A DNA stretch of 64,000 bases from Eubacteriales bacterium (lineage in GTDB: Bacteria > Bacillota > Clostridia > Oscillospirales > JAAYXM01): the NCBI GenBank assembly GCA_045649105.1, contig JAZRPG010000041.1:10566-74565 (forward strand). Direction: 5' to 3'. Below the pieces are notes generated by a model. The model worked only from the letters and a program-made list of their open reading frames with translations, was not told the DNA's origin and searched no databases. The translations under genes and the position numbers were made by a program. Shown in pieces: positions 38,205 through 50,081 of the stretch. Position 1 is the stretch's first letter. The number at the start of each line of letters is the position of its first letter.

Positions 38205-38234
38205 AAAAATGCCGCCCGTGCAGGCGGCCTTTTT
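38205..38234 (-). terminator. Terminator downstream of the DMT transporter gene
   Basis: GCCGCC-cgtgca-GGCGGC with flanking A/T tracts. Confidence 0.7.
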
Positions 38235-38248
38235 ATATCTTTCTATTA

Positions 38249-39133
38249 CTATTCAAATATTTTTATGAGGAGCATTGACAGAAGGCATATTACAACGCCC
38301 GCAACGCATTTAAACGAAACTTTTTCCTTATATACTATAGCACCTACTATTACAGTTACAACGGTTGCCCCGCCCATTACAAAGGTGAAAAGCACAGCCG
38401 AGGAAAGCATCGGCGTCAGTATCGTAACAAATTGCTGTACTATAAAGACAGCGAATGCAAGGAACAATGCATACAATATTATATTTTTAGAAAGCGGTTC
38501 TTTCTTTTCTCCCGTTGCTTCAATAGGCTTAAGCCCCAAGAATAAAATGACGGAGGGTATCAAAAATGTCATAAGCGAAAACATGGAGACATTGCCGTCC
38601 GGCTGTAATTCACCAAAAAGCTTCTGGCAAAACATGGTCATACCGTTTGAAACCAGACCTCCCAAAAGGTAAATCAACATTTTGGGAGAAAAGTGTCCGT
38701 ATATCTTCTTGGAGGAATCAACAATCAAAACTGATGCTGCGAAAAATACGAATATACAAATAAACTGTATATAATTCATAGGTTCATCAAAAACGAATAT
38801 TCCCAACAGGCACGGAACAATAAGACCCGCTGTGCTGAAAATCGATGACAAAACCATCGTTCCGCCCTTTAATGCCTCAATCTGGAGCCAAGAAGAAATG
38901 GCAAGAAAAATTCCGGAAAATGTTGCAATAAGCAGTCCCTGCAAATTAAAGCCGCCGAAATCCCCCGCTATAATAAGGCTTACAAGAGCAAAACCTGCCG
39001 CGAGGAATTTTGAAATCATTATATACTTTATGTATGCATACATAGAGCCGGGCAGTTCAAGATTCGCCTTCTTACTGTAAAAGCTTTGCACAACACGCAT
39101 GCAAATTATGATGACCAGATACAGAGCTATCAT
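38249..39133 (-). CDS. DMT/EamA-like membrane transporter
   Basis: 294 aa with about 10 predicted TM helices. No specific motif recognised. Confidence 0.6.
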   Translation of the reverse strand: MIALYLVIIICMRVVQSFYSKKANLELPGSMYAYIKYIMISKFLAAGFALVSLIIAGDFGGFNLQGLLIATFSGIFLAISSWLQIEALKGGTMVLSSIFSTAGLIVPCLLGIFVFDEPMNYIQFICIFVFFAASVLIVDSSKKIYGHFSPKMLIYLLGGLVSNGMTMFCQKLFGELQPDGNVSMFSLMTFLIPSVILFLGLKPIEATGEKKEPLSKNIILYALFLAFAVFIVQQFVTILTPMLSSAVLFTFVMGGATVVTVIVGAIVYKEKVSFKCVAGVVICLLSMLLIKIFE

Positions 39134-39358
39134 TTTCTCCTATGCCCCCTATAAATGTTATGCGTTTATTATATATGTAGTCTTTTTGCAAACAGGCCAA
39201 AAACGAACCGATTGCAACACTCAGTATTATACGCTAATAAAATAAATTGTCAAGCAAAAAACAGAAAAAAAGTTCATGAAAATCGCAACCTTTTCAACTT
39301 CAGGACAAGACAGTTTAATCGGAAAAAATCAAAAAGAACTCCGAAATAATTATTTTCC

Positions 39359-39387
39359 TTGACAAATCGAAATTTCGGGTATATAAT
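39359..39387 (+). promoter_or_regulatory. Consensus sigma-A promoter of the aro operon
   Basis: TTGACA (39359-64), 17 nt, TATAAT (39382-87). Confidence 0.7.
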
Positions 39388-39420
39388 ATCTACCAATAAT
39401 AAAGAAAGGAAGAATCGCAT

Positions 39421-39504
39421 ATGCCAGTAGCGCTTAACACAAAACGCAATCGATTTTATTTTAGCCATCCGTGCGGTTTTTCATTCTTTGCAAAAACCCG
39501 TTAA
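39421..39504 (+). CDS. Candidate leader peptide (27 codons, Phe/Tyr-rich) of the aro operon
   Basis: AGAAAGGA SD 8-10 nt upstream of the ATG. Peptide MPVALNTKRNRFYFSHPCGFSFFAKTR, with aromatic codons clustered at 39454-62 and 39478-89. No homology evidence. Confidence 0.35.
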   Translation: MPVALNTKRNRFYFSHPCGFSFFAKTR

Positions 39505-39552
39505 ATCGATGGCTTATGAGCTGTCGGCTTGATGGCAATTACAAAGTAAACT

Positions 39553-39602
39553 GAAGTCCGCACGGAATTTGATTTCAAATCAAAATCGTGCGGACTTTTT
39601 TT
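39553..39602 (+). terminator. Leader (attenuator) terminator of the aro operon
   Basis: Stem AAGTCCGCACG/CGTGCGGACTT with an AU-rich upper extension, followed by T7. Confidence 0.8.
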
Positions 39603-39621
39603 AGTAAGGAGATTATAGATT

Positions 39622-40650
39622 ATGAATTTGATATTTGAAAGAAAACTTCCCATACCGAAAGAGATTAAAGAGATGTGTCCGTTATCACCGGACTTAAGTA
39701 GAATAATCAAAGAAAGAGAAAAGGAAATTGCGGATATCTTCACAGGAAAGAGCAATAAGCTCATCCTTATAATCGGCCCCTGCTCCGCCGATAACGAAGA
39801 CAGCGTCATAGATTATATTACAAGGCTTAGGCGCGTGCAGGAAAAGGTTTCTGATAAAATCTTTATCATTCCGCGAATTTACACGAACAAGCCGCGGACA
39901 ACAGGCGACGGCTACAAGGGCATGCTTCATCAGCCCAATCCTACCGAAAAGCCTGATATGCTAAAGGGCATTATGATGATTCGTGATTTGCATATAAGAG
40001 CAATCAAGGAAACAGGCTTTTCATGTGCAGACGAGATGCTCTACCCTGAAAATTACAGGTATCTGGATGACATTTTAGCCTATGTTGCAATCGGTGCAAG
40101 AAGCGTCGAAAATCAGCAGCACAGATTAACGGCAAGCGGAATCTCCATCCCTGTCGGAATGAAGAATCCCACAAGCGGAGATTTATCCGTTATGATGAAC
40201 GCAATAAAGGCAGCTCAGCACAAGCATACATTCATATACCGCGGCTGGGAAGTACATTCTCAGGGAAACCCATTGTCACACGCGATTCTTCGCGGATATG
40301 TAAACAAGCACGGTCAGTCGCTTCCGAACTACCATTACGAAGACCTTGAACTTCTGTGCAAGTTATACAGCGAATCAGGCCTTGAAAACCCGGGCGTAAT
40401 CATCGATACAAACCACTCAAATTCAGGAAAGCAAGCACTTCAGCAAATGCGCATCGCAAAGGATGTTATGCACAGCACAAGACACGACAGCGCCATCAAG
40501 AAGCTTGTAAAAGGCTTTATGATTGAAAGCTATATCGAAGACGGCGCTCAAAAAATCGGCGAGTGTATCTACGGTAAATCCATAACGGACCCGTGCCTTG
40601 GCTGGGAAAAGAGCGAAAAGCTTATTTTCGATTTAGCGGAATTAGTCTAA
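39622..40650 (+). CDS. aroF: 3-deoxy-7-phosphoheptulonate (DAHP) synthase, class I
   Basis: 342 aa. IIGPCSA and KPRT motifs. First gene of the aro operon. Confidence 0.92.
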   Translation: MNLIFERKLPIPKEIKEMCPLSPDLSRIIKEREKEIADIFTGKSNKLILIIGPCSADNEDSVIDYITRLRRVQEKVSDKIFIIPRIYTNKPRTTGDGYKGMLHQPNPTEKPDMLKGIMMIRDLHIRAIKETGFSCADEMLYPENYRYLDDILAYVAIGARSVENQQHRLTASGISIPVGMKNPTSGDLSVMMNAIKAAQHKHTFIYRGWEVHSQGNPLSHAILRGYVNKHGQSLPNYHYEDLELLCKLYSESGLENPGVIIDTNHSNSGKQALQQMRIAKDVMHSTRHDSAIKKLVKGFMIESYIEDGAQKIGECIYGKSITDPCLGWEKSEKLIFDLAELV

Positions 40651-40667
40651 GGAAAGGAAAAAGACAA

Positions 40668-41504
40668 ATGAAAATAGGAATTATAGGACTCGGACTTATC
40701 GGCGGCTCCATGGCAAAAGCAATAAGACTTAATACTGACCATTATGTTTTAGGAATGGATATTGACCGAAAGATAGTAACAAAAGCAAAAATCATAGAGG
40801 CAATAAATGAGGAGCTTACGGAGGAAAACATCGGCGAATGCGATATGCTTATCCTGGCACTATACCCCGATGCAACTGTCAATACGGTCAAAAAATACGC
40901 CCATCTGATTAAAAAGGGCGCATACCTTATTGATTGCGGCGGTGTTAAAGAAAAGGTATGTGACAATATCCCTGAAATCGCAAGAGAAAACGGATTTATA
41001 TTTGTCGGCGGGCATCCCATGGCAGGTATTGAGAAAATTGGCTTTAAGTACTCAAATGCCGAGATTTTTACAGAAGCATCCATGATTTTAACACCCGATG
41101 ATAATGTAAAGGTTGAGGACCTTGTCAATATAAAAATATTCTTCCTCTCAATAGGTTTCGGCAAAATAACGGTGAAAACGGCAAAGGACCATGACAGAAT
41201 AATCGCTTATACCTCTCAGCTTGCCCATGTACTCTCAAACGCTTATGTAAAAAGCGAAACAGCAAAGGAGCATAGGGGCTTATCGGCAGGAAGCTTTAAG
41301 GACCTGACAAGAGTTGCGTATCTTAACGAAACAATGTGGACCGAGCTGTTTTTTGAAAACAAAAACAATCTTATTTCTGAGCTTGACACGCTTATAAATA
41401 ACCTTGGCGAATACAAGTCCGCACTTGAAAAAAATGACGAAGACAAACTGAAGGAACTTCTCAGAATCGGAAGAGAAACAAAAGAGGCGCTTGACAATGA
41501 ATAG
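40668..41504 (+). CDS. tyrA: Prephenate dehydrogenase
   Basis: Trimmed to MKIGIIGLGLIGGSMAKAI (Rossmann fold). GGHPMAG motif. Confidence 0.9.
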   Translation: MKIGIIGLGLIGGSMAKAIRLNTDHYVLGMDIDRKIVTKAKIIEAINEELTEENIGECDMLILALYPDATVNTVKKYAHLIKKGAYLIDCGGVKEKVCDNIPEIARENGFIFVGGHPMAGIEKIGFKYSNAEIFTEASMILTPDDNVKVEDLVNIKIFFLSIGFGKITVKTAKDHDRIIAYTSQLAHVLSNAYVKSETAKEHRGLSAGSFKDLTRVAYLNETMWTELFFENKNNLISELDTLINNLGEYKSALEKNDEDKLKELLRIGRETKEALDNE

Positions 41505-42549
41505 AAAAGTTACGGTCAGCGGTGTCACAAAGCCTTACGACATCATTATAGGAAATAATATTCTAAACATACTCCCCGATAAAATAAAAGAGCTTACAGG
41601 GGCAAAAAACGTCGTTATCATAACTGATGATAATGTTGACAGGCTGTACTCCGAGAAGCTTTTAAGCATAGTAAATGATGCAGGGTTTAATACTCTTAAA
41701 TTTGTATTCCCTCACGGAGAGAATCACAAGACAATGGAAACAGTCCATGACATATTGGAGTTTATGGCAGAAAACAACATAACCCGCTCCGACCTGATTA
41801 TTGCCCTCGGCGGAGGTATTGTCGGAGATGTGACGGGATATGCGGCGGCATCATATCTCCGCGGAACAGCTTTCATTCAGGTCCCCACCACCTTCCTGGC
41901 TGCCATAGACTCATCTGTCGGAGGCAAAACGGGAGTGAACTTAAAATCAGGAAAAAATCTTGCAGGCGCGTTTTATCAGCCACGACTCGTCGTTTGTGAC
42001 ACTGACACCTTTAAAACACTGCCGAAAGAAAACTTTAAGGAAGGCGTTTGTGAAGCAATAAAGTACGGTGTAATTTGTGATAAGGAACTGTTTGATTTGC
42101 TTTCAAAAAACGAACGCACAGATATAGAGAGCGTTATAGAAAGATGCGTCTCCATCAAGGCCGAAATTGTAGCAGCGGATGAATTTGACACAGGCAAAAG
42201 ACAGCTTCTGAATTTCGGGCACACAATCGGCCACGCAATCGAAAAGGCAACAGACTTTAAAATTTCTCACGGAATTGCAGTCGGAATCGGAATGGCGCTT
42301 ATTTCCAAAATCAGCGATTGCCTGGGGTGGTCGAAGGAAGACACGCACTCCCCGATTATGAAATGTCTTAAAAACAACGACATTCCGACAGACACCGATG
42401 TTAAAACCGATGCGCTTCTGTCTGCCATGCTAAAGGATAAAAAGAGAAACGGAGACGCAATAAACCTTGTTGTCCCCGAAAAAATCGGGGCTTGTGTGCT
42501 TAAAAGCATACATATTGCCGAGCTTGAGGAAGTGTTAAAATGCAGGTGA
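41497..42549 (+). CDS. aroB: 3-dehydroquinate synthase
   Basis: Start taken at ATG 41497 (AAAGAGG RBS 9 nt upstream), which overlaps the tyrA stop. GGGVVGD-type and HGIAV motifs. Confidence 0.92.
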   Translation: MNRKVTVSGVTKPYDIIIGNNILNILPDKIKELTGAKNVVIITDDNVDRLYSEKLLSIVNDAGFNTLKFVFPHGENHKTMETVHDILEFMAENNITRSDLIIALGGGIVGDVTGYAAASYLRGTAFIQVPTTFLAAIDSSVGGKTGVNLKSGKNLAGAFYQPRLVVCDTDTFKTLPKENFKEGVCEAIKYGVICDKELFDLLSKNERTDIESVIERCVSIKAEIVAADEFDTGKRQLLNFGHTIGHAIEKATDFKISHGIAVGIGMALISKISDCLGWSKEDTHSPIMKCLKNNDIPTDTDVKTDALLSAMLKDKKRNGDAINLVVPEKIGACVLKSIHIAELEEVLKCR

Positions 42550-43796
42550 AAATAAAACCCGTAAATCCATTCGGCGAAGTTTCCGCCATCAGCTCAAAAT
42601 CAGATGCGCACAGAGCAATCATCTGCTCTGCACTCTCTGATGACAAAACCTCAATACACATATCGCATATATCAAAAGACATTGAGGCGACTTTAAACTG
42701 CATAAGAAAAATGGGTGCGGATTTTTCAAAAAACGGCAATTTATATGAAATAACACCTGTTCAAACCCCCGTTTTAAACCCCGTTCTGGATTGTAACGAG
42801 AGCGGCTCGACACTGAGATTCTTATTCCCTGTTTTGTCGGCACTCGGTTGCGGCGCTACATTTATCGGCTCAGGCAGACTTCCCGAGCGGCCGATGGAGC
42901 TTATCGTTGATTTATTAAAGGAGCACGGAAACAGCTTTTCGTCAACCGGGCTTCCCATAACCGTATCGGGAAAAACTACCGCAGGGACATTTGACATCGC
43001 AGGAAATGTAAGCTCACAGTTTATATCCGGGCTTTTATTTGCACTTCCCCTGCTTCGAAAAAAAAGCGTTATAAGACTCACATCAAAGCTTCAGTCATCA
43101 GCTTATGTCAACATGACGGTTGACACTTTAAAAAACTTCGGAGTAAATATCACGCAAACCGAGAACGGGTTTATTGTAAATGCAACCGATAATTACACAT
43201 CGCCAAAAAAATATATTGTTGAAGGCGATTGGTCGAATGCGGCATTTTTTATGGTTATGGGCGCCCTCGGCGGTAATGTCACAATAAAAAACCTTAATTT
43301 AAACTCTCATCAGAGCGACAAAATGATTCTGGACGCGTTATCTCTTGCAGGAGTGGATTTCAGTCTTTCCGATAACCTGATTACAGTTTCAAAAAGCGAA
43401 ATAAAGCCTTTTGATTTTGATGTGTCAGAGTGTCCCGACCTGTTCCCCGTTTTGTCTGTTTTAGCCTGCAGAGCAAAAGGCAAATCAACTCTTTATAACG
43501 CAGAGCGGTTAAGGATAAAGGAAAGCGACAGAATCAAAACAACCAAAGAGCTTATATTAAATCTCGGCGGAAATGCGGAGGAAACCGACGACAGCTTAAT
43601 CATATACGGAAACGGGAAATTAAGCGGCGGGCAGGCAGAAAGCCATAACGACCACAGAATTGCAATGTCGGCATTTACCGCAAGTGTGATTTGCGAAAAC
43701 GATATTATTCTCAAAAATGCGGAAGCGGTAGACAAATCCTATCCGACATTTATGGAGGATTTCAGTAAAATCGGAGGTGCTTTTGATGTCATCTGA
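42540..43796 (+). CDS. aroA: 3-phosphoshikimate 1-carboxyvinyltransferase (EPSP synthase)
   Basis: 418 aa. SKSDAHRAII, LRIKESDR and NDHRIAM motifs. Confidence 0.95.
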   Translation: MQVKIKPVNPFGEVSAISSKSDAHRAIICSALSDDKTSIHISHISKDIEATLNCIRKMGADFSKNGNLYEITPVQTPVLNPVLDCNESGSTLRFLFPVLSALGCGATFIGSGRLPERPMELIVDLLKEHGNSFSSTGLPITVSGKTTAGTFDIAGNVSSQFISGLLFALPLLRKKSVIRLTSKLQSSAYVNMTVDTLKNFGVNITQTENGFIVNATDNYTSPKKYIVEGDWSNAAFFMVMGALGGNVTIKNLNLNSHQSDKMILDALSLAGVDFSLSDNLITVSKSEIKPFDFDVSECPDLFPVLSVLACRAKGKSTLYNAERLRIKESDRIKTTKELILNLGGNAEETDDSLIIYGNGKLSGGQAESHNDHRIAMSAFTASVICENDIILKNAEAVDKSYPTFMEDFSKIGGAFDVI

Positions 43797-44853
43797 AACA
43801 GGAAAAAAAATAAAAGTCAGTATTTTCGGCGAATCCCACGGCAGTGCTGTCGGCGCTGTAGCAGATAACCTGCCTGCAGGAGAATATATTGATTTAAACG
43901 AGCTGCAGCGCTTCCTAAAGCGCCGTCAGGGCGGAAACAACAAATACTCCACGCCGAGAAAAGAAGCCGATATCCCCGAAATTGTATCCGGAATCAAGGA
44001 TAATATAACAACAGGCGCTCCCCTGTGCCTTATTATCAGAAACGAAAATACCCGCTCAAAGGATTATGAAACGGACATTCCGAGACCCGGACATGCAGAT
44101 TTTACCGCTCATACAAAATACAACGGCTTCTGCGATTTAAGAGGCGGCGGGCATTTTTCAGGCAGACTGACCGCACCGATTTGTGCAGTCGGCGGAATAT
44201 TGATGCAAATATTAAAAAGGCGCGGCATTGATATAGTTGCGCATTTGTCATCAGTCGGCAATATTTTTGACGATAGAATAAACAATCTTGCGCTTGATGA
44301 AAATCAGCTGAGCAAGATAAAGAGTTCCTGCTTCCCCGTCCTTTCAGATGCTGCAGGTGAAAAAATGCAGGATTTGATTATGAGCGTTAAGGACGAAGGA
44401 AATTCCGTCGGCGGATGCGTTGAATGCGGAATATACGGCCTTGATGCAGGCATCGGAAACCCGATGTTTGACGGGCTGGAAAATGCAATAGCTTCTGCTG
44501 TTTTCGGCATTGGCGGCGTAAAGGGCATCGAATTCGGACTCGGGTTTGAGGCTGCTAAAATTAAAGGCTCGGAAAACAATGATGAGTTTTATATGGACGG
44601 AGGTTCGGTAAAGACAAAAACCAACAACCACGGCGGAATCCTTGGAGGCATAACAACGGGAATGCCCGTCGTATTTAACGTTGCATTCAAGCCCACTCCT
44701 TCAATTTCGCTCAACCAGCAAAGTGTGAGCTTTTCAAAAAAAGAAAATGTTAATTTATCAGTAAAAGGCAGACATGACCCCTGCATTGCAGTTCGCGCAG
44801 TGCCTTGCATCGAGGCCATATCTGCAATAGCTGTATCGGACTTTTTACTGTAG
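43786..44853 (+). CDS. aroC: Chorismate synthase
   Basis: Start at ATG 43786 (GGAGGTG RBS). FGESHG and RPGHAD motifs. Confidence 0.95.
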   Translation: MSSETGKKIKVSIFGESHGSAVGAVADNLPAGEYIDLNELQRFLKRRQGGNNKYSTPRKEADIPEIVSGIKDNITTGAPLCLIIRNENTRSKDYETDIPRPGHADFTAHTKYNGFCDLRGGGHFSGRLTAPICAVGGILMQILKRRGIDIVAHLSSVGNIFDDRINNLALDENQLSKIKSSCFPVLSDAAGEKMQDLIMSVKDEGNSVGGCVECGIYGLDAGIGNPMFDGLENAIASAVFGIGGVKGIEFGLGFEAAKIKGSENNDEFYMDGGSVKTKTNNHGGILGGITTGMPVVFNVAFKPTPSISLNQQSVSFSKKENVNLSVKGRHDPCIAVRAVPCIEAISAIAVSDFLL

Positions 44854-44864
44854 AGGTGGTAAAA

Positions 44865-46007
44865 ATGGGTTTAGATGAATTACGAAATGAAATAGACGCA
44901 ATAGATGATGAAATTCTAAATCTTTTCTTAAAAAGAATGGAGAAGGCATCACAAGTCGCAGATTACAAAAAAGAAAACAAGCTTTCCACCTTGCAAAAAG
45001 GCAGAGAAAGAGAAATCCTCAAACGAGTGAGCGAAAAGTCAGGAAGCGAAATGGCGGAATACTCCCGGATGCTTTTTTCGCACCTGATGGACTTAAGCAA
45101 AAATTATCAGAACAAAAGAAACGCCGACTCCTACGGAGAGCTTTCCGAAAAAATAAAAAATGCACTCAGCAATACTCCGAAAATTTTTCCGCACTCAGGT
45201 ACCGTTGCGTGTCAGGGCATTGAGGGTGCATATTCACAGATTGCGTGCGACAGGCTTTTTAAAGACTCCGACATTCAGTACGTCAAAACATTTGAGGATG
45301 TTTTTAAAAAAGTGGAGGACGGAACCTGCAGTTATGGAATTTTGCCTATTGAAAATTCAATCCACGGGACTGTAATTGCCGTTTATGACCTTATGAAAAA
45401 CTATAATTTTCATATCATTAAAAGCATCAAACTAAAGATTAACCATGCTCTCATGGCAAACAAAGGTACAAAGCTTTCGGATATTCGGGAAATTGTTTCC
45501 CACGAGCAGGCAATCGGACAATGCTCGGAATTCTTAAAGGAGTATCCCGACATAAAGATAACCGTTTGTGAAAATACCGCAGTTGCCGCAAAGCTTGTTG
45601 CAGACTCGAAAAGACACGATATCGCTGCCATTTCTTCTCCCGATTGTGCAGAGAATTACGGACTTTTTGTTCTTGATGATAAAATCGCAAACTCCGACAG
45701 TAACTTCACAAGGTTTATCTGTATCACAAAGGAGCTCTTGATTTATCCCGGTGCCGACAGGATAAGCATTATAATGAACCTGCCGCACACTCCGGGCTCA
45801 CTGAACAGCATTCTTTCAAAATTCGCAACGGCAGGACTTAACCTGACAAAGCTTGAATCAAGACCGCTTGCAGGAAGGGATTTTGAGTTTTCCTTCTATT
45901 TTGATTTGGAAGCATCAATATATGCAGAGGAAACACTCAGCATCTTAGATGAGCTTGCATCAGGAAACAATAACCTGATTTTCCTCGGAAGCTATCTGCA
46001 GTCTTAA
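44865..46007 (+). CDS. pheA: Bifunctional chorismate mutase / prephenate dehydratase (P-protein) with ACT domain
   Basis: Trimmed to MGLDELRNEIDAIDDEILNLFLKRM (CM_2 domain; GAGGTGG RBS). PDT region GILPIENSIHG and a C-terminal ACT domain. Confidence 0.92.
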   Translation: MGLDELRNEIDAIDDEILNLFLKRMEKASQVADYKKENKLSTLQKGREREILKRVSEKSGSEMAEYSRMLFSHLMDLSKNYQNKRNADSYGELSEKIKNALSNTPKIFPHSGTVACQGIEGAYSQIACDRLFKDSDIQYVKTFEDVFKKVEDGTCSYGILPIENSIHGTVIAVYDLMKNYNFHIIKSIKLKINHALMANKGTKLSDIREIVSHEQAIGQCSEFLKEYPDIKITVCENTAVAAKLVADSKRHDIAAISSPDCAENYGLFVLDDKIANSDSNFTRFICITKELLIYPGADRISIIMNLPHTPGSLNSILSKFATAGLNLTKLESRPLAGRDFEFSFYFDLEASIYAEETLSILDELASGNNNLIFLGSYLQS

Positions 46008-46123
46008 GACAAAAAACAAAACGCACATAAGCGCAATAATCCCCTATCACTCTCCCCTGCGATAAGGGAAAATTTCAGTCTGATATTTAGCTGTTGCAGG
46101 GCGGCGGAACGGAATTTATAAGT

Positions 46124-47362
46124 ATGAAATACGGATGCATAGGTGAGCATTTAACACACAGCTTTTCAAAGGAAATACATAACAGTCTTGCGGATTACGA
46201 TTATGTACTAAAGGAAATTCCGAGGGAAAATCTCAGTGAATTTCTGACTGGCCGCGATTTTAAGGCTGTTAATGTAACAATTCCTTACAAAGAAGCTGTC
46301 ATTCCATATCTTTATTATACAGACGATGCCGCAAAGGAGATTGGCGCAGTAAATACCGTTGTAAACAAAGACGGTAAGCTTTACGGATATAATACTGACT
46401 TTTACGGAATGAGAATGCTGTTATCCCACGCAGGAATCACCCTTAAGGACAAAAAAGTTGCAATCTTAGGCACAGGCGGCACTTCAAAAACTGCCGCAGC
46501 TGTTGCAAAATCACTTTCAGCAAAAGAAATTCTCATCGTTTCAAGAGCCAAAAAGGACGGCACGATAACATACGAGGAATTATATGAAAATAACAAGGAT
46601 TCGGATATTATTATAAACACAACGCCGCTCGGCATGTTTCCGGACATTTTTACAAAGCCGGTTGATATACAAAAATTCACAAACCTCTCAGGCGTGATTG
46701 ATGCAGTGTACAATCCTCTTAAAACCGGACTCATCTGTGATGCAAAAAAACTCGGAATAAAAGCAGAGGGTGGCCTTTATATGCTTGTGGCTCAGGCAGT
46801 TCTGGCATCAGAGATATTTACAGAAAAAAAATACGAAAAAGGAACGCTTGATGCAATCTTTAAGAAACTGAAAAAGGAAAAAGAAAACATTGTCCTAATC
46901 GGGATGCCTTCATCAGGCAAAAGCACGACAGGAAAAGAAATTGCAAAAAGGCTCGCCCGCAAATTCTACGATACTGACGAGCTCATAGAAAACGAAACAG
47001 GCAGAAAAATATCTGAAATTATCGCTGCAGCGGGCGAAGAATCATTCAGAAGCGCAGAAAAAGACACCGTATGCGAGGTATCAAAGAAAACAGGGGTTGT
47101 TATCGCTACAGGCGGCGGTGTTGTACTGAAAGAAGAAAATGTAAGAGCACTGTCACAAAACGGCAGAATATATTTTTTGGACAGACCTGTTGAATTACTT
47201 CTGCCGACAAAGGACAGGCCCCTCACAAGCACAAAGGAAGCTCTGCTTCAAAAATTCAGCGAAAGATACAGTATTTATGAACAGTCGGCAGATGTCAAAA
47301 TTGATGCATCAGGCGATGTGGATACGGTTTCAAATGCGGTAACAAAAGATTTCAAAGAATAA
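46124..47362 (+). CDS. aroE/aroK: Shikimate dehydrogenase / shikimate kinase fusion
   Basis: Trimmed to MKYGCIGEHLTHSFS. N-terminal AroE (NVTIPYK, NTD), C-terminal AroK with Walker A GMPSSGKST. Confidence 0.9.
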   Translation: MKYGCIGEHLTHSFSKEIHNSLADYDYVLKEIPRENLSEFLTGRDFKAVNVTIPYKEAVIPYLYYTDDAAKEIGAVNTVVNKDGKLYGYNTDFYGMRMLLSHAGITLKDKKVAILGTGGTSKTAAAVAKSLSAKEILIVSRAKKDGTITYEELYENNKDSDIIINTTPLGMFPDIFTKPVDIQKFTNLSGVIDAVYNPLKTGLICDAKKLGIKAEGGLYMLVAQAVLASEIFTEKKYEKGTLDAIFKKLKKEKENIVLIGMPSSGKSTTGKEIAKRLARKFYDTDELIENETGRKISEIIAAAGEESFRSAEKDTVCEVSKKTGVVIATGGGVVLKEENVRALSQNGRIYFLDRPVELLLPTKDRPLTSTKEALLQKFSERYSIYEQSADVKIDASGDVDTVSNAVTKDFKE

Positions 47363-47396: not shown

Positions 47397-47426
47397 TTGA
47401 CAAAACAAAAGACAAAGGAATATAAT
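47397..47426 (+). promoter_or_regulatory. Sigma-A promoter of the T-box unit
   Basis: TTGACA, 18 nt, TATAAT, about 30 nt upstream of Stem I. Confidence 0.6.
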
Positions 47427-47454
47427 ATAATACAAATTTGAATATCACAAAAAA

Positions 47455-47720
47455 CGACTATGATGAGGACGGTCGGATTGCAAAACCTTGAGAGAGTTGC
47501 CGGTTGGTGCGAGGCAATGGCAGAGCTTTCCAATGACTTATCACCTCTGAGTCGGAGGACCGAAAAGCTATGGCTTAGTAGACTCCTTCCGTAATGCTGC
47601 GTAAAAGCAAAGGGCTTGTCAGAGCTCGGTAAGTGACGGAAATTTATGAATTTTCGTAATTTGAGTGGTACCGCGGGTTATTATAACTCGTCTCAAAGTT
47701 ATCTTTGAGGCGAGTTTTTT
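47455..47720 (+). promoter_or_regulatory. T-box riboswitch leader (specifier most likely AUC, Ile; Leu registers possible)
   Basis: Stem I carries a K-turn (CGAC-UAU-GAU-GAGG / CCUC-UGA-GUCG), AG bulge AGAGAG and distal loop GGUUGGUGCGA. Also present: an AGTA box, an F-box-like CCGTAA, Stem III, the T-box sequence AATTTGAGTGGTACCGCGG (47658-76), and a 13-bp terminator plus T6. Confidence 0.9.
47686..47720 (+). terminator. T-box terminator
   Basis: ACTCGTCTCAAAG-ttat-CTTTGAGGCGAGT followed by TTTTTT. Confidence 0.9.
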
Positions 47721-47780
47721 GTTTTATTCAAATTCGTAACCAAATGCTGAATTTGTCAAAACCGGAAAGGAGACAAAACA

Positions 47781-50081
47781 ATGGATTACAGTTTGAAAGA
47801 GGTAGCAGGCAGAATCAAGGGTCTGCGCGAAGCAAAAGGATACACACAGGAAGAGCTTGCAAGGCTTTGCGGTGTATCGGCAGAAGACTATAAAGTCCTG
47901 GAAAACGGTGAAAAGGATTTCAGCTTCACATTTATTTACAAGTGCGCAAAAGCTTGCGGTGTTGAGGTTGTAGATTTGCTCGAAGGAACAAGCACAACTC
48001 TTACTTCTTTCGCCATCACAAGAAAAGGCGAAGGTCTTAAAATCGTTAAAAAGCACGGTGTGGAATACAACAACCTTGCCCCTAAGTTCAGAGAAAAGCT
48101 TGCCGAACCTTTCCTCGTTAAATTTCCGTACATTGAGGAGGAGCAGAACACTCCGATTCAGTTAAATTCACATAACGGTCAGGAATTTGATGTTATTGTC
48201 AAAGGTTCGCTCAAGGTTCAGGTCGGAAATCATGTGGATATACTCCGCGAGGGTGATTCCATTTTCTATAACAGCCTTATTCCCCACGGTATGGTCGCAG
48301 CAAGCGAGGGCGGCTGCGAATTTCATGCGGTAGTACTCAATCCGCAGGACGGCAAAGTCAGCGAAGAATATCCCGAAGCTCCGATGATTGCTGCAAAGGC
48401 AGCTGCCAAAAAGAAAAAGACAGAAACAGTTGCAGATAAGTTCATCGAATCATCTTATGATGAAAACGGTGTGTTCAGCGGTATCAAATTCAAGAATGCA
48501 GATTCATTTAACTTTGCTTATGACTGCGTTGATGCCATTGCCGAAAAGAATCCCGAAAAACTCGCCATGATGTGGGTGGCAAACGACAAGACGGACAGAC
48601 GCTTTACATTTTCCGATATGAAAAAATATTCTGCAAAAACCGCAAACTACTTTGAATCACTCGGCATCAAAAAAGGCGACACGGTAATGCTCGTATTAAA
48701 AAGACATTATCAGTTCTGGTTCTGTATGCTTGCACTTCACAAAATCGGTGCTATCGCAATCCCTGCAACAAATCAGCTTGTAGAGCACGACTTTGATTAC
48801 AGATACAAGGCAGCAAAAGTAAAAGCAGTTGTATGTACCGCAGATGGTGATGTATCACTTGAGGCAGAAAAAGCAGCTGCAAATTATCCCGGCATGGTAA
48901 AAGTATTGGTTGGCGGAAATAAAGAAGGCTGGCACGATTTCAATGTTGAAATGGAACGCTTCAGTACACACTTTGACCGCACGGAAAACACACCTTGCGG
49001 AAACGACCCGATGCTTATGCTCTTTACATCGGGCACTACAGGCTATCCGAGAATCGCAACACATTCATACAAATACGCACTCGGTCATTATCCTACAGCG
49101 AAGCATTGGCATAATGTAAATCCTGACGGACTCCACTTCACAATCTCCGATACAGGCTGGGGTAAAGCACTTTGGGGTAAGCTTTACGGACAGTGGCTAT
49201 GCGAAGCGGCACAGTTTACCTATGATTTTGACAGATTCCATTCGGAAGATATTTTGCCGATGTTTGCGAAATACAACATCACAACCTTCTGTGCACCGCC
49301 TACAATGTACCGTTTCTTTATTAAAGAGGATTTGTCAAAGTATGACCTTTCTTCTATCGAGTATGCGACAACCGCAGGCGAAGCATTAAACCCCGAAGTA
49401 TTCAATCAGTTTAAGAAAGCAACGGGTCTTACAATTATGGAAGGCTTCGGCCAGACAGAAACAACCCTTTCCATCGCAAACTTTGTCGGCTCAACACCGA
49501 AAATCGGTTCCATGGGCAGACCTTCTCCGCTTTATGATGTAGTCGTTCTCGACCCTGACGGCAACGAATGCAAAACGGGCGATACAGGCGAAATCTGTAT
49601 CAGAGTGAAAGATGATATCCCTTGCGGGCTCTTTATCGGCTATTATCTTGACGAAGAAAAGACAAATGAGGTATGGCATGACGGATACTATCATACAGGC
49701 GACCAGGCAACAATGGACGAAGACGGATACCTTTGGTATGTCGGCCGTATAGATGATGTTATCAAATCGTCAGGCTACCGCATCGGGCCTTTTGAAATCG
49801 AGAGCGTTATCATGGAGCTTCCCTATGTTCTTGAATGCGCAATCACACCCGTTCCCGATGAAGTTCGCGGTCAGATTGTAAAGGCTACCATCGTGCTCGT
49901 CAAAGGACATAACGGCACGGATGAACTCAAGAAAGAGATTCAGGAATATGTCAAAACACACACCGCGCCGTACAAATATCCTCGAATCGTTGAATTTGTC
50001 GATGAGCTTCCAAAAACAATCAGCGGTAAGGTAAGGCGTGTTGAAATCCGTAAAAATGATATGAATAAAATGCAAAAATAA
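47781..50081 (+). CDS. Fusion protein: XRE-type HTH + cupin domain + AMP-forming (medium-chain-type) acyl-CoA synthetase
   Basis: 766 aa with an AAAGGAG RBS. N-terminal HTH (GLREAKGYTQEELARLCGVS), a cupin (GQEFDVIVKG...HGM) and a K/A-rich linker. Adenylation motifs TSGTTGYPR, GRIDDVIKSSGYRIGPFEIE and PKTISGKVRR. Confidence 0.85.
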   Translation: MDYSLKEVAGRIKGLREAKGYTQEELARLCGVSAEDYKVLENGEKDFSFTFIYKCAKACGVEVVDLLEGTSTTLTSFAITRKGEGLKIVKKHGVEYNNLAPKFREKLAEPFLVKFPYIEEEQNTPIQLNSHNGQEFDVIVKGSLKVQVGNHVDILREGDSIFYNSLIPHGMVAASEGGCEFHAVVLNPQDGKVSEEYPEAPMIAAKAAAKKKKTETVADKFIESSYDENGVFSGIKFKNADSFNFAYDCVDAIAEKNPEKLAMMWVANDKTDRRFTFSDMKKYSAKTANYFESLGIKKGDTVMLVLKRHYQFWFCMLALHKIGAIAIPATNQLVEHDFDYRYKAAKVKAVVCTADGDVSLEAEKAAANYPGMVKVLVGGNKEGWHDFNVEMERFSTHFDRTENTPCGNDPMLMLFTSGTTGYPRIATHSYKYALGHYPTAKHWHNVNPDGLHFTISDTGWGKALWGKLYGQWLCEAAQFTYDFDRFHSEDILPMFAKYNITTFCAPPTMYRFFIKEDLSKYDLSSIEYATTAGEALNPEVFNQFKKATGLTIMEGFGQTETTLSIANFVGSTPKIGSMGRPSPLYDVVVLDPDGNECKTGDTGEICIRVKDDIPCGLFIGYYLDEEKTNEVWHDGYYHTGDQATMDEDGYLWYVGRIDDVIKSSGYRIGPFEIESVIMELPYVLECAITPVPDEVRGQIVKATIVLVKGHNGTDELKKEIQEYVKTHTAPYKYPRIVEFVDELPKTISGKVRRVEIRKNDMNKMQK

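Follow-up and report, generated by a model that had tools for sequence, protein, structure and literature searches.

The leader that precedes the aromatic amino acid operon in a 64,000-nucleotide (nt) stretch of an Eubacteriales bacterium genome (contig JAZRPG010000041.1, positions 10,566 to 74,565; the whole stretch is referred to as the window) is likely to be a ribosome-mediated transcription attenuator reporting the supply of charged tRNA-Phe and tRNA-Tyr, a reading to which a probability of about 0.75 is assigned on the basis of sequence comparison. The leader contains a short upstream open reading frame (uORF) with an aromatic core, both of which are conserved in all homologous copies, and its RNA can form three mutually exclusive helices that covary between relatives. 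The initial annotation of the window, in which a Phe/Tyr attenuator of this kind was preferred to a leader responding to a ligand or protein, is therefore supported on three counts: the orthologous uORF, its invariant aromatic core and the covarying switch helices. All counts of conservation and base pairing given below are taken from an alignment (A1) of 11 homologous leaders, those of the window and of ten homologues (L001, L081, L082, L083, L087, L088, L089, L090, L091 and L092), which were recovered by nhmmer with E values of 1e-63 to 1e-77. The features of the leader, in window coordinates, are as follows.

39359-39387, + strand: sigma-70 promoter TTGACA-17 nt-TATAAT (-35 box 39359-64, -10 box 39382-87), scoring 12/12
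near 39394, + strand: predicted transcription start, placed from the promoter
39400-39423, + strand: strand A, comprising the uORF Shine-Dalgarno (SD) sequence and AUG (39421-23); 5' strand of the anti-antiterminator A:B
39403-10, + strand: uORF SD AGAAAGGA, with the ATG at 39421
39403-12, + strand: longer uORF SD sequence AGAAAGGAAG, part of strand A
39421-39504, + strand: leader uORF, 27 codons and TAA (stop codon 39502-04), peptide MPVALNTKRNRFYFSHPCGFSFFAKTR
39451-39462, + strand: putative regulatory codons CGA-UUU-UAU-UUU (Arg-Phe-Tyr-Phe), in the A:B loop
39466-39490, + strand: strand B, the switch strand, pairing with A or, via 39468-81, with C
39498-39535, + strand: hairpin P2, with the uORF stop codon in its 5' strand; -17.4 kcal/mol
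39553-39566, + strand: strand C, both terminator 5' arm and 3' strand of the antiterminator (B:C pairing)
39553-39602, + strand: intrinsic terminator; lower stem 39554-65/39586-97, upper stem 39568-72/39580-84, U7 at 39596-39602
39606-11, + strand: aroF SD AAGGAG, with the aroF ATG at 39622
39606-47362, + strand: putatively regulated operon, from NCBIfam assignments and open reading frame (ORF) coordinates

The leader open reading frame and its aromatic core

The main landmarks described in the initial annotation were all recovered, namely the perfect TTGACA-17-TATAAT promoter, the SD spaced before the ATG at 39421, the 27-codon uORF with five Phe and one Tyr residues, the strong intrinsic terminator immediately before the aroF ribosome binding site (hairpin 39553-39598, -24.4 kcal/mol) and the 9-mer TCCGTGCGG at 39468-76, which is the exact reverse complement of 39558-66. 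A simple terminator scan missed the terminator, because its loop is longer than 8 nt.

The same signals are shared by the homologues. Promoter, SD (GAAAGGAAG), ATG, frame and TAA are common to all 11 leaders, the promoter taking the form TTGAC, 17-18 nt, TA(T/A)AAT, with an extended TG in most copies. In each of them the uORF is intact, with 24-28 codons and the same stop. Across the 11 uORFs, the number of stop codons within the span is 0, 13 and 26 for frames 0, +1 and +2, respectively; in the variable N-terminal part only, where the 9-11 codons after the ATG have diverged almost fully and yet are free of in-frame stops, it is 0, 7 and 16. The three indel events in the uORF (+3, +3 and -9 nt) are all multiples of three, and downstream of it indels of 1, 2 or 3 nt occur, those of 1 and 2 nt being common. 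The run Arg(CGA)-Phe-Tyr-(Phe/Tyr) is invariant in all 11 leaders apart from Phe-Tyr swaps: the last core codon is UUU in six leaders and UAU in five, which is the sole substitution in the core, and the sole insertion there is an extra UAU codon in L088. The expectation that orthologous leaders should retain both the uORF and its aromatic codons is thus borne out.

Aromatic residues make up 19-37% of the leader peptides, as against 7.6% in the long ORFs of the window, while Trp codons are absent from the leader peptides and trp genes from the operon. An excess of Phe and Tyr among the variable N-terminal codons was also considered, and discarded, as their frequency (12 of approximately 100) is not clearly above the expectation for AT-rich sequence. 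Elsewhere in the peptide, residues 15 (Ser/Cys), 17 (Pro/Leu/Val) and 18 (Cys/Tyr) are not kept as amino acids. Nor is the second Phe cluster (39478-89), which had been taken for part of the aromatic signal, conserved as Phe; in relatives it reads FSFF, FPVF, FSIF, FSVL, FSNF and others. It corresponds to the U-rich strand B, and its position 3' of the antiterminator strand, which had appeared difficult to reconcile with attenuation, is explained by its role at the level of the RNA, namely pairing with the purine-rich region of the SD. As the frame is kept, in-frame stops are absent, the aromatic run is invariant and other residues vary, the alignment favours a translated leader in which the aromatic run is the only constraint at the level of the peptide.

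Most of the core is covered by an 11-nt block, UCGAUUUUAUU (39450-60), that is invariant in all 11 leaders even at synonymous sites, whereas divergence is free in the codons preceding it. Among the codons of the block is CGA, which makes up 4% of the Arg codons in the window and is the least used of them. The candidate pairing partners of this block at 39504-10 and 39577-88 are not conserved in relatives, and a complementarity between 39451-61 and 39577-88 seen in the window was rejected for this reason. One possibility is that the invariance reflects selection for four consecutive, slowly decoded codons, read by wobble or inosine pairing; the invariance is also the chief argument in favour of the competing explanations discussed below.

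Mutually exclusive helices in the leader RNA

Folding of the leader gives a z score of -4.6 relative to dinucleotide shuffles. The strongest helix, which had gone unnoticed in the initial annotation, is A:B, formed by 39400-04 with 39486-90 and 39408-23 with 39466-82 (RNAalifold columns 7-30 with 79-103), and it sequesters the SD and AUG of the uORF. The proportions of its cells that are paired across the 11 leaders are 98.2% and 90.9%, and in L090 the C-G of column pair 25/86 is replaced by U-A. Pairing by strand B is maintained despite amino acid changes in the peptide that it encodes (Pro to Leu or Val, Cys to Tyr, Ser to Cys). The antiterminator B:C, between 39468-81 and 39553-66, consists of 13 pairs, with 92.3% of cells paired and three double-change pairs; at column pair 84/177, six leaders have AU, three GC and two GU. 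For the terminator C:D the corresponding figures are 97% and again three double-change pairs, and the U-tract is present in every leader. In L090 columns 25, 86, 175 and 205 change jointly, from C-G/G-C/C-G to U-A/A-U/U-A. This linked change, which was read from the L090 row of alignment A1 and agrees with the pair counts, supports A:B, B:C and C:D at once.

The terminated fold as a whole (A:B, P2 and terminator) has 96.1% of its cells paired and six double-change pairs, and was reached by none of 500 shuffles. Hairpin P2 (RNAalifold columns 111-148; 95.7% of cells paired, one double change) may act as a spacer or cause pausing; for its 5' strand, 39463-81 is an alternative partner. An alternative hairpin, B:E, combines 39463-69/39508-14 with 39475-81/39492-98, and has 94.8% of its cells paired and one compensatory change. 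These two local helices had already been proposed from the window, and are found to exist and to be conserved. A third, given as 39449-56/39503-10, was misplaced (the complementary segments are 39449-55/39504-10) and was rejected, only a 4-bp core being kept in relatives. The covarying helices that were sought in orthologous leaders hence make up a set of terminator, antiterminator and anti-antiterminator, and no compact aptamer.

The duplex energies of A:B, B:C and C:D (-20.3, -21.1 and -21.9 kcal/mol, respectively) are nearly the same. As long as strand D is not yet made, 8 of the 11 sequences have B:C as their minimum free energy (MFE) fold; at full length, A:B together with the terminator takes this place in 10 of them. 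To judge from these predicted folds, the architecture of the leader is that of a kinetic attenuator.

Attenuation model and competing explanations

An arrangement of this kind would operate as follows. Transcription would start near 39394 and yield a leader RNA capable of three mutually exclusive helices of approximately -20 to -24 kcal/mol each. If the uORF were not translated, A:B would form once B had been made and C:D next, so that transcription would end at about 39600. With ample Phe and Tyr, a ribosome would cross B, keeping it from C while C is being made, and reach the stop codon at 39502, where its trailing edge, at about 39487, would lie past B; A:B would then zip up behind it, C:D would form and the operon would be off. 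Under starvation for Phe or Tyr, the ribosome would stall with CGA-UUU-UAU-UWU (39451-62) in its decoding sites. The footprint of a bacterial ribosome extends from the first nucleotide in the P site by approximately 12 nt in the upstream and 15 nt in the downstream direction, and a stalled ribosome would therefore occupy the greater part of the A:B loop (33-45 nt) and cover the top of the helix, leaving A:B unable to close. The aromatic codons at 39454-62 lie 6-14 nt upstream of the antiterminator strand, and the leading edge of the stalled ribosome would be at about 39466-72, with 8-13 of the 13 B:C pairs free. Strand B could then pair with C as it emerges, no terminator would form and aroF-tyrA-aroB-aroA-aroC-pheA-aroEK would be transcribed. 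A:B, when formed, would also block re-initiation on the uORF. The caveat raised in the initial annotation, that only a stall at the first Phe codon would leave 39468-76 outside the ribosome, is softened by the extent of B:C, which reaches 39481: a stall at any of the three aromatic codons would leave 8-13 pairs available. A second ribosome queued on the SD was also considered, and was not adopted as a general component of the model; the spacing fits ten loci and is marginal in L091, where the N-terminus is three codons shorter.

Several observations weigh against this interpretation. The regulatory codons lie outside strand 1, since the partner of B is 39400-23, and the stop codon at 39502-04 lies so far downstream that a terminating ribosome would cover only 39487-90 of B and would not mask this strand. 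When folding was repeated with the stalled ribosome only as a mask, A:B was still the MFE fold in 3-6 of the 11 sequences; as A:B and B:C are nearly isoenergetic, such masked folding does not discriminate between models. The model hence needs a steric or kinetic argument, and the steric step was not confirmed by thermodynamic masking. The conserved P2 and B:E hairpins have no necessary role in it, and the invariance of UCGAUUUUAUU at synonymous sites extends beyond codon identity and may indicate a function at the level of the RNA. Finally, all 11 leaders come from one narrow clade, with aroF products 90-100% identical, so that counts of covariation are few and partly inherited.

Some of these features would be accommodated by a riboswitch or protein-binding RNA, in which Phe, Tyr, prephenate, chorismate or an RNA-binding protein stabilised A:B and the conserved single-stranded blocks and the uORF was incidental. 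The leader is strongly structured, as its folding z score indicates; the blocks UCGAUUUUAUU, GCAAAAACC and ACAAAG are invariant or nearly so beyond the needs of the codons, which include the rare CGA; P2 is conserved with no part to play in the ribosome model; and the sequestration of an SD by A:B is reminiscent of many translational riboswitches. Such an explanation is nevertheless considered unlikely, because the frame has been kept over three indel events (0, 13 and 26 stops by frame), changes in the core are limited to Phe-Tyr swaps and the region enclosed by A:B, unlike an aptamer core, varies in both sequence and length except for the aromatic codons. Known RNA classes give no support either. 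Against Rfam 15 the leader has no match at the gathering thresholds, and at E values up to 10 only chance matches of miRNA and sRNA models to the terminator hairpin (E = 0.3-9). The T-box covariance model (RF00230) has no match in 39330-39660 at E up to 10, whereas as a positive control it scores 91.4 bits (E = 6e-21) at 47451-47698 of the window. A TRAP leader has nine to eleven (G/U)AG triplets with 2-3 nt between them, and in 39394-39621 not even two consecutive triplets are present. The distribution of the element is also extremely narrow, whereas riboswitch classes are usually broad.

It is also conceivable that the leader senses translation in general, any ribosome on the SD and AUG blocking A:B and so causing read-through, with the aromatic codons a mere by-product of U-rich sequence. 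Strand A is indeed a ribosome binding site, the leader is AT-rich with UUU and UAU as preferred codons, and with the start region masked, B:C becomes the MFE fold of every one of the 11 sequences as long as strand D is absent. Yet a translating ribosome must cross B, so that loading alone would not free this strand; Phe-Tyr-(Phe/Tyr) is invariant amid freely diverging codons, with the sole insertion there adding a Tyr codon; and the products of the operon are exactly Phe and Tyr, all of which make this alternative quite unlikely. A third mechanism, arrest by the nascent peptide, would have a motif N-R-F-Y-F/Y...H...G-F stall the ribosome on B when free Phe or Tyr is abundant, much as TnaC does with Trp, and so favour the terminator. 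A stall at codons 17-23 would cover B and promote termination, which is the right sign for a biosynthetic operon, and His16, Gly19 and Phe20 are invariant. These residues, however, fall on invariant base pairs of A:B, and this coincidence allows their conservation to be explained by RNA pairing, while non-conservative substitutions are seen at residues 15 (Ser to Cys), 17 (Pro to Leu or Val) and 18 (Cys to Tyr), and no likeness to a known arrest peptide was noticed, although no search was aimed at one; arrest by the peptide is accordingly regarded as the least probable of the explanations considered. There is, finally, a very slim chance that the nucleotide-level invariance of Asn-Arg(CGA)-Phe-Tyr-Phe and that of His16, Gly19 and Phe20 mark either a TnaC-like sensor of free amino acids with the opposite outcome or a ligand-binding RNA within the uORF, acting besides ribosome sensing. 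Were the TnaC-like version true, abundant Phe or Tyr would arrest the ribosome on B and force termination of a biosynthetic operon.

Operon context, distribution and known attenuators

The operon downstream of the leader comprises aroF (39622-40650), tyrA, aroB, aroA, aroC, a chorismate mutase/prephenate dehydratase gene and an aroE-aroK fusion. In three of the homologous loci, a gene for a 4HBT/PaaI-like hotdog thioesterase (129-135 amino acids) lies between leader and aroF (L001 2579-2986, L087 1084-1473 and L091 1099-1488), and in L092 (~1430-1470) only about 40 nt of the 3' end of this gene is left, after the terminator. The gene has been completely lost in the window, L081 and L090. Its presence in three loci and its remnant in L092 suggest loss in the lineage of the window, the ancestral operon probably having been leader, thioesterase and aroF. 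Upstream of the leader, the neighbouring genes are different in nearly all loci (fumC, alaS, pfk, murJ, an oxidoreductase gene and an EamA transporter gene), which suggests that the leader travels together with the aro operon.

The leader was found in only one of 80 aroF loci from GTDB species representatives, that of L001, whose aroF is 93% identical. In the other 79, where aroF is 68-81% identical, it was not detected; these loci mostly have a promoter 30-50 nt before aroF or another gene directly preceding it. Nine further leaders (L081, L082, L083 and L087-L092) were found via the closest aroF proteins, which are 90-98% identical; an exact look-up of the aroF protein of the window gave no match. 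A covariance model (R1) revealed no additional copies in 607 kb of loci, and a scan of JGI metagenomes with a degenerate pattern of the core peptide and RNA gave a single match, a chance one inside a coding region. The element thus appears real but limited to one narrow clade of uncultured Clostridia (Oscillospirales-like metagenome-assembled genomes, MAGs), in which it arose or was acquired recently.

A number of observations on the surroundings of these loci may be recorded. In the window, the EamA-family transporter gene upstream of the leader (38249-39133, - strand) has its own perfect divergent promoter, TTGACA-16 nt-TATAAT (39253-39226). In the relative L081, which is 98% identical, the 633 nt that separate fumC from aroF contain no called gene, and the hairpin after fumC is a near-identical copy, differing by one base, of window 38211-38228, which points to a recent insertion or deletion beside the leader. 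L085 (1-1408) and L086 (1-1433), in which aroF is 92% identical, have a gene for a PaaK-like AMP-binding ligase and an ACT-domain gene directly before aroF, and no leader within the 1.5 kb covered; a link to the use of phenylacetate for Phe synthesis is possible. In L020 (1-56), from an Oscillospiraceae MAG with an aroF 76% identical, a strong terminator-like hairpin with U7 ends 22 nt before the aroF ATG, and this may be a different, unrelated attenuator; the contig ends 56 nt upstream. After the aro operon of the window a second attenuator is found (47397-47780), consisting of a perfect promoter (47397-47426), the T-box at 47451-47698 that served as positive control and a terminator (47685-47716). 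A default scan misses this T-box because its score of 91.4 bits is just under the gathering score of 93. Its specifier position reads AUC (Ile) in the cmscan alignment, and it precedes a 766-amino acid HTH_3/Cupin_2/MbcS-like acyl-CoA synthetase fusion (47781-50081), so that the unit may provide Ile-controlled activation of a branched-chain acid.

Aromatic amino acid operons of Firmicutes are textbook examples of control by T-boxes or TRAP, and classical leader-peptide attenuation is regarded as uncommon in that phylum. The present element is a well supported case of a leader peptide in uncultured gut and rumen Oscillospirales, and would mark the operon as Phe/Tyr-repressed in organisms that are not yet culturable. 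Such Phe/Tyr control was not previously known in this lineage, although the kind of regulation and the theme of aroF with Phe-Tyr-Phe have already been published, and the novelty for Firmicutes that had initially been attributed to the leader has to be qualified to this extent. A uORF motif upstream of aroF, uORFC-13-1, was described by the Breaker laboratory (Brewer et al. 2021, RNA Biol; PMC8632094) from 24 representatives, which come from Acholeplasma and from environmental DNA that is unassigned. It occurs before aroF only, is composed of -35 and -10 boxes, a ribosome binding site, a start codon, a U-run encoding Phe, a further paired substructure and an adjacent terminator, and has been proposed to sense the speed of Phe incorporation (PMC8632094). 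All of these features are seen in the present leader, the comparison being with the published description only. The two differ in that uORFC-13-1 has been reported only from Acholeplasma and unassigned environmental sequences (PMC8632094), and in that 3 of the 11 present loci have the thioesterase gene between leader and aroF. The lack of an Rfam match at E up to 10 would exclude membership of uORFC-13-1 only if this motif is in Rfam.

In Corynebacterium glutamicum, according to the account of Neshat et al. 2014 summarised in PMC11802643, the aroF operon is preceded by a leader peptide, AroR, that includes Phe-Tyr-Phe, and stalling of the ribosome at these codons raises read-through. As in the present case, a short leader ORF with this motif stands directly before an operon for DAHP synthase; C. 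glutamicum, however, belongs to the Actinobacteria, and in that summary only limitation for Phe is given as effective (PMC11802643). Compared by description only, the shared motif is probably a matter of convergence. Within Firmicutes, classical leader-peptide attenuation in place of T-boxes is represented by the His leader peptides before Bacillus hisS/hisZ paralogues (PMC2965389) and the Leu-rich attenuator peptide of the Staphylococcus aureus ilv operon (PMC5794164). Those leaders concern other amino acids and operons, are unrelated in sequence and belong neither to Clostridia nor to aro genes.

The most instructive comparison is with trpL, pheL and hisL. Like them, the present leader has a uORF under selection, with its own SD and start, that carries consecutive codons for an amino acid produced by the operon, three exclusive helices (1:2, 2:3 and 3:4) in which an antiterminator involves the 5' arm of an intrinsic terminator, and termination as the predicted default when it is not translated. 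The wiring is unusual, in that strand 1 is the leader's own SD and AUG, and the regulatory codons are not within this strand as in the classical systems but in the loop of the hairpin. Furthermore, the stop codon lies 21 nt past the antiterminator segment 39468-81, so that a terminating ribosome would not mask strand 2 as it does in those systems, and the conserved hairpin P2 is added between strands 2 and 3. This design suggests that the ribosome acts as a wedge in a hairpin and that, each time a decision has been made, further translation of the leader is prevented by the leader itself; it is also simple to test, since the regulatory codons, being unpaired, can be replaced with the helices left intact. 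Because two of the classical features, regulatory codons within strand 1 and masking of strand 2 by the terminating ribosome, are replaced in this way, the element is best described, from its sequence and predicted structure, as working like a leader-peptide attenuator while being a variant of the trpL/pheL/hisL design rather than a plain member of that group.

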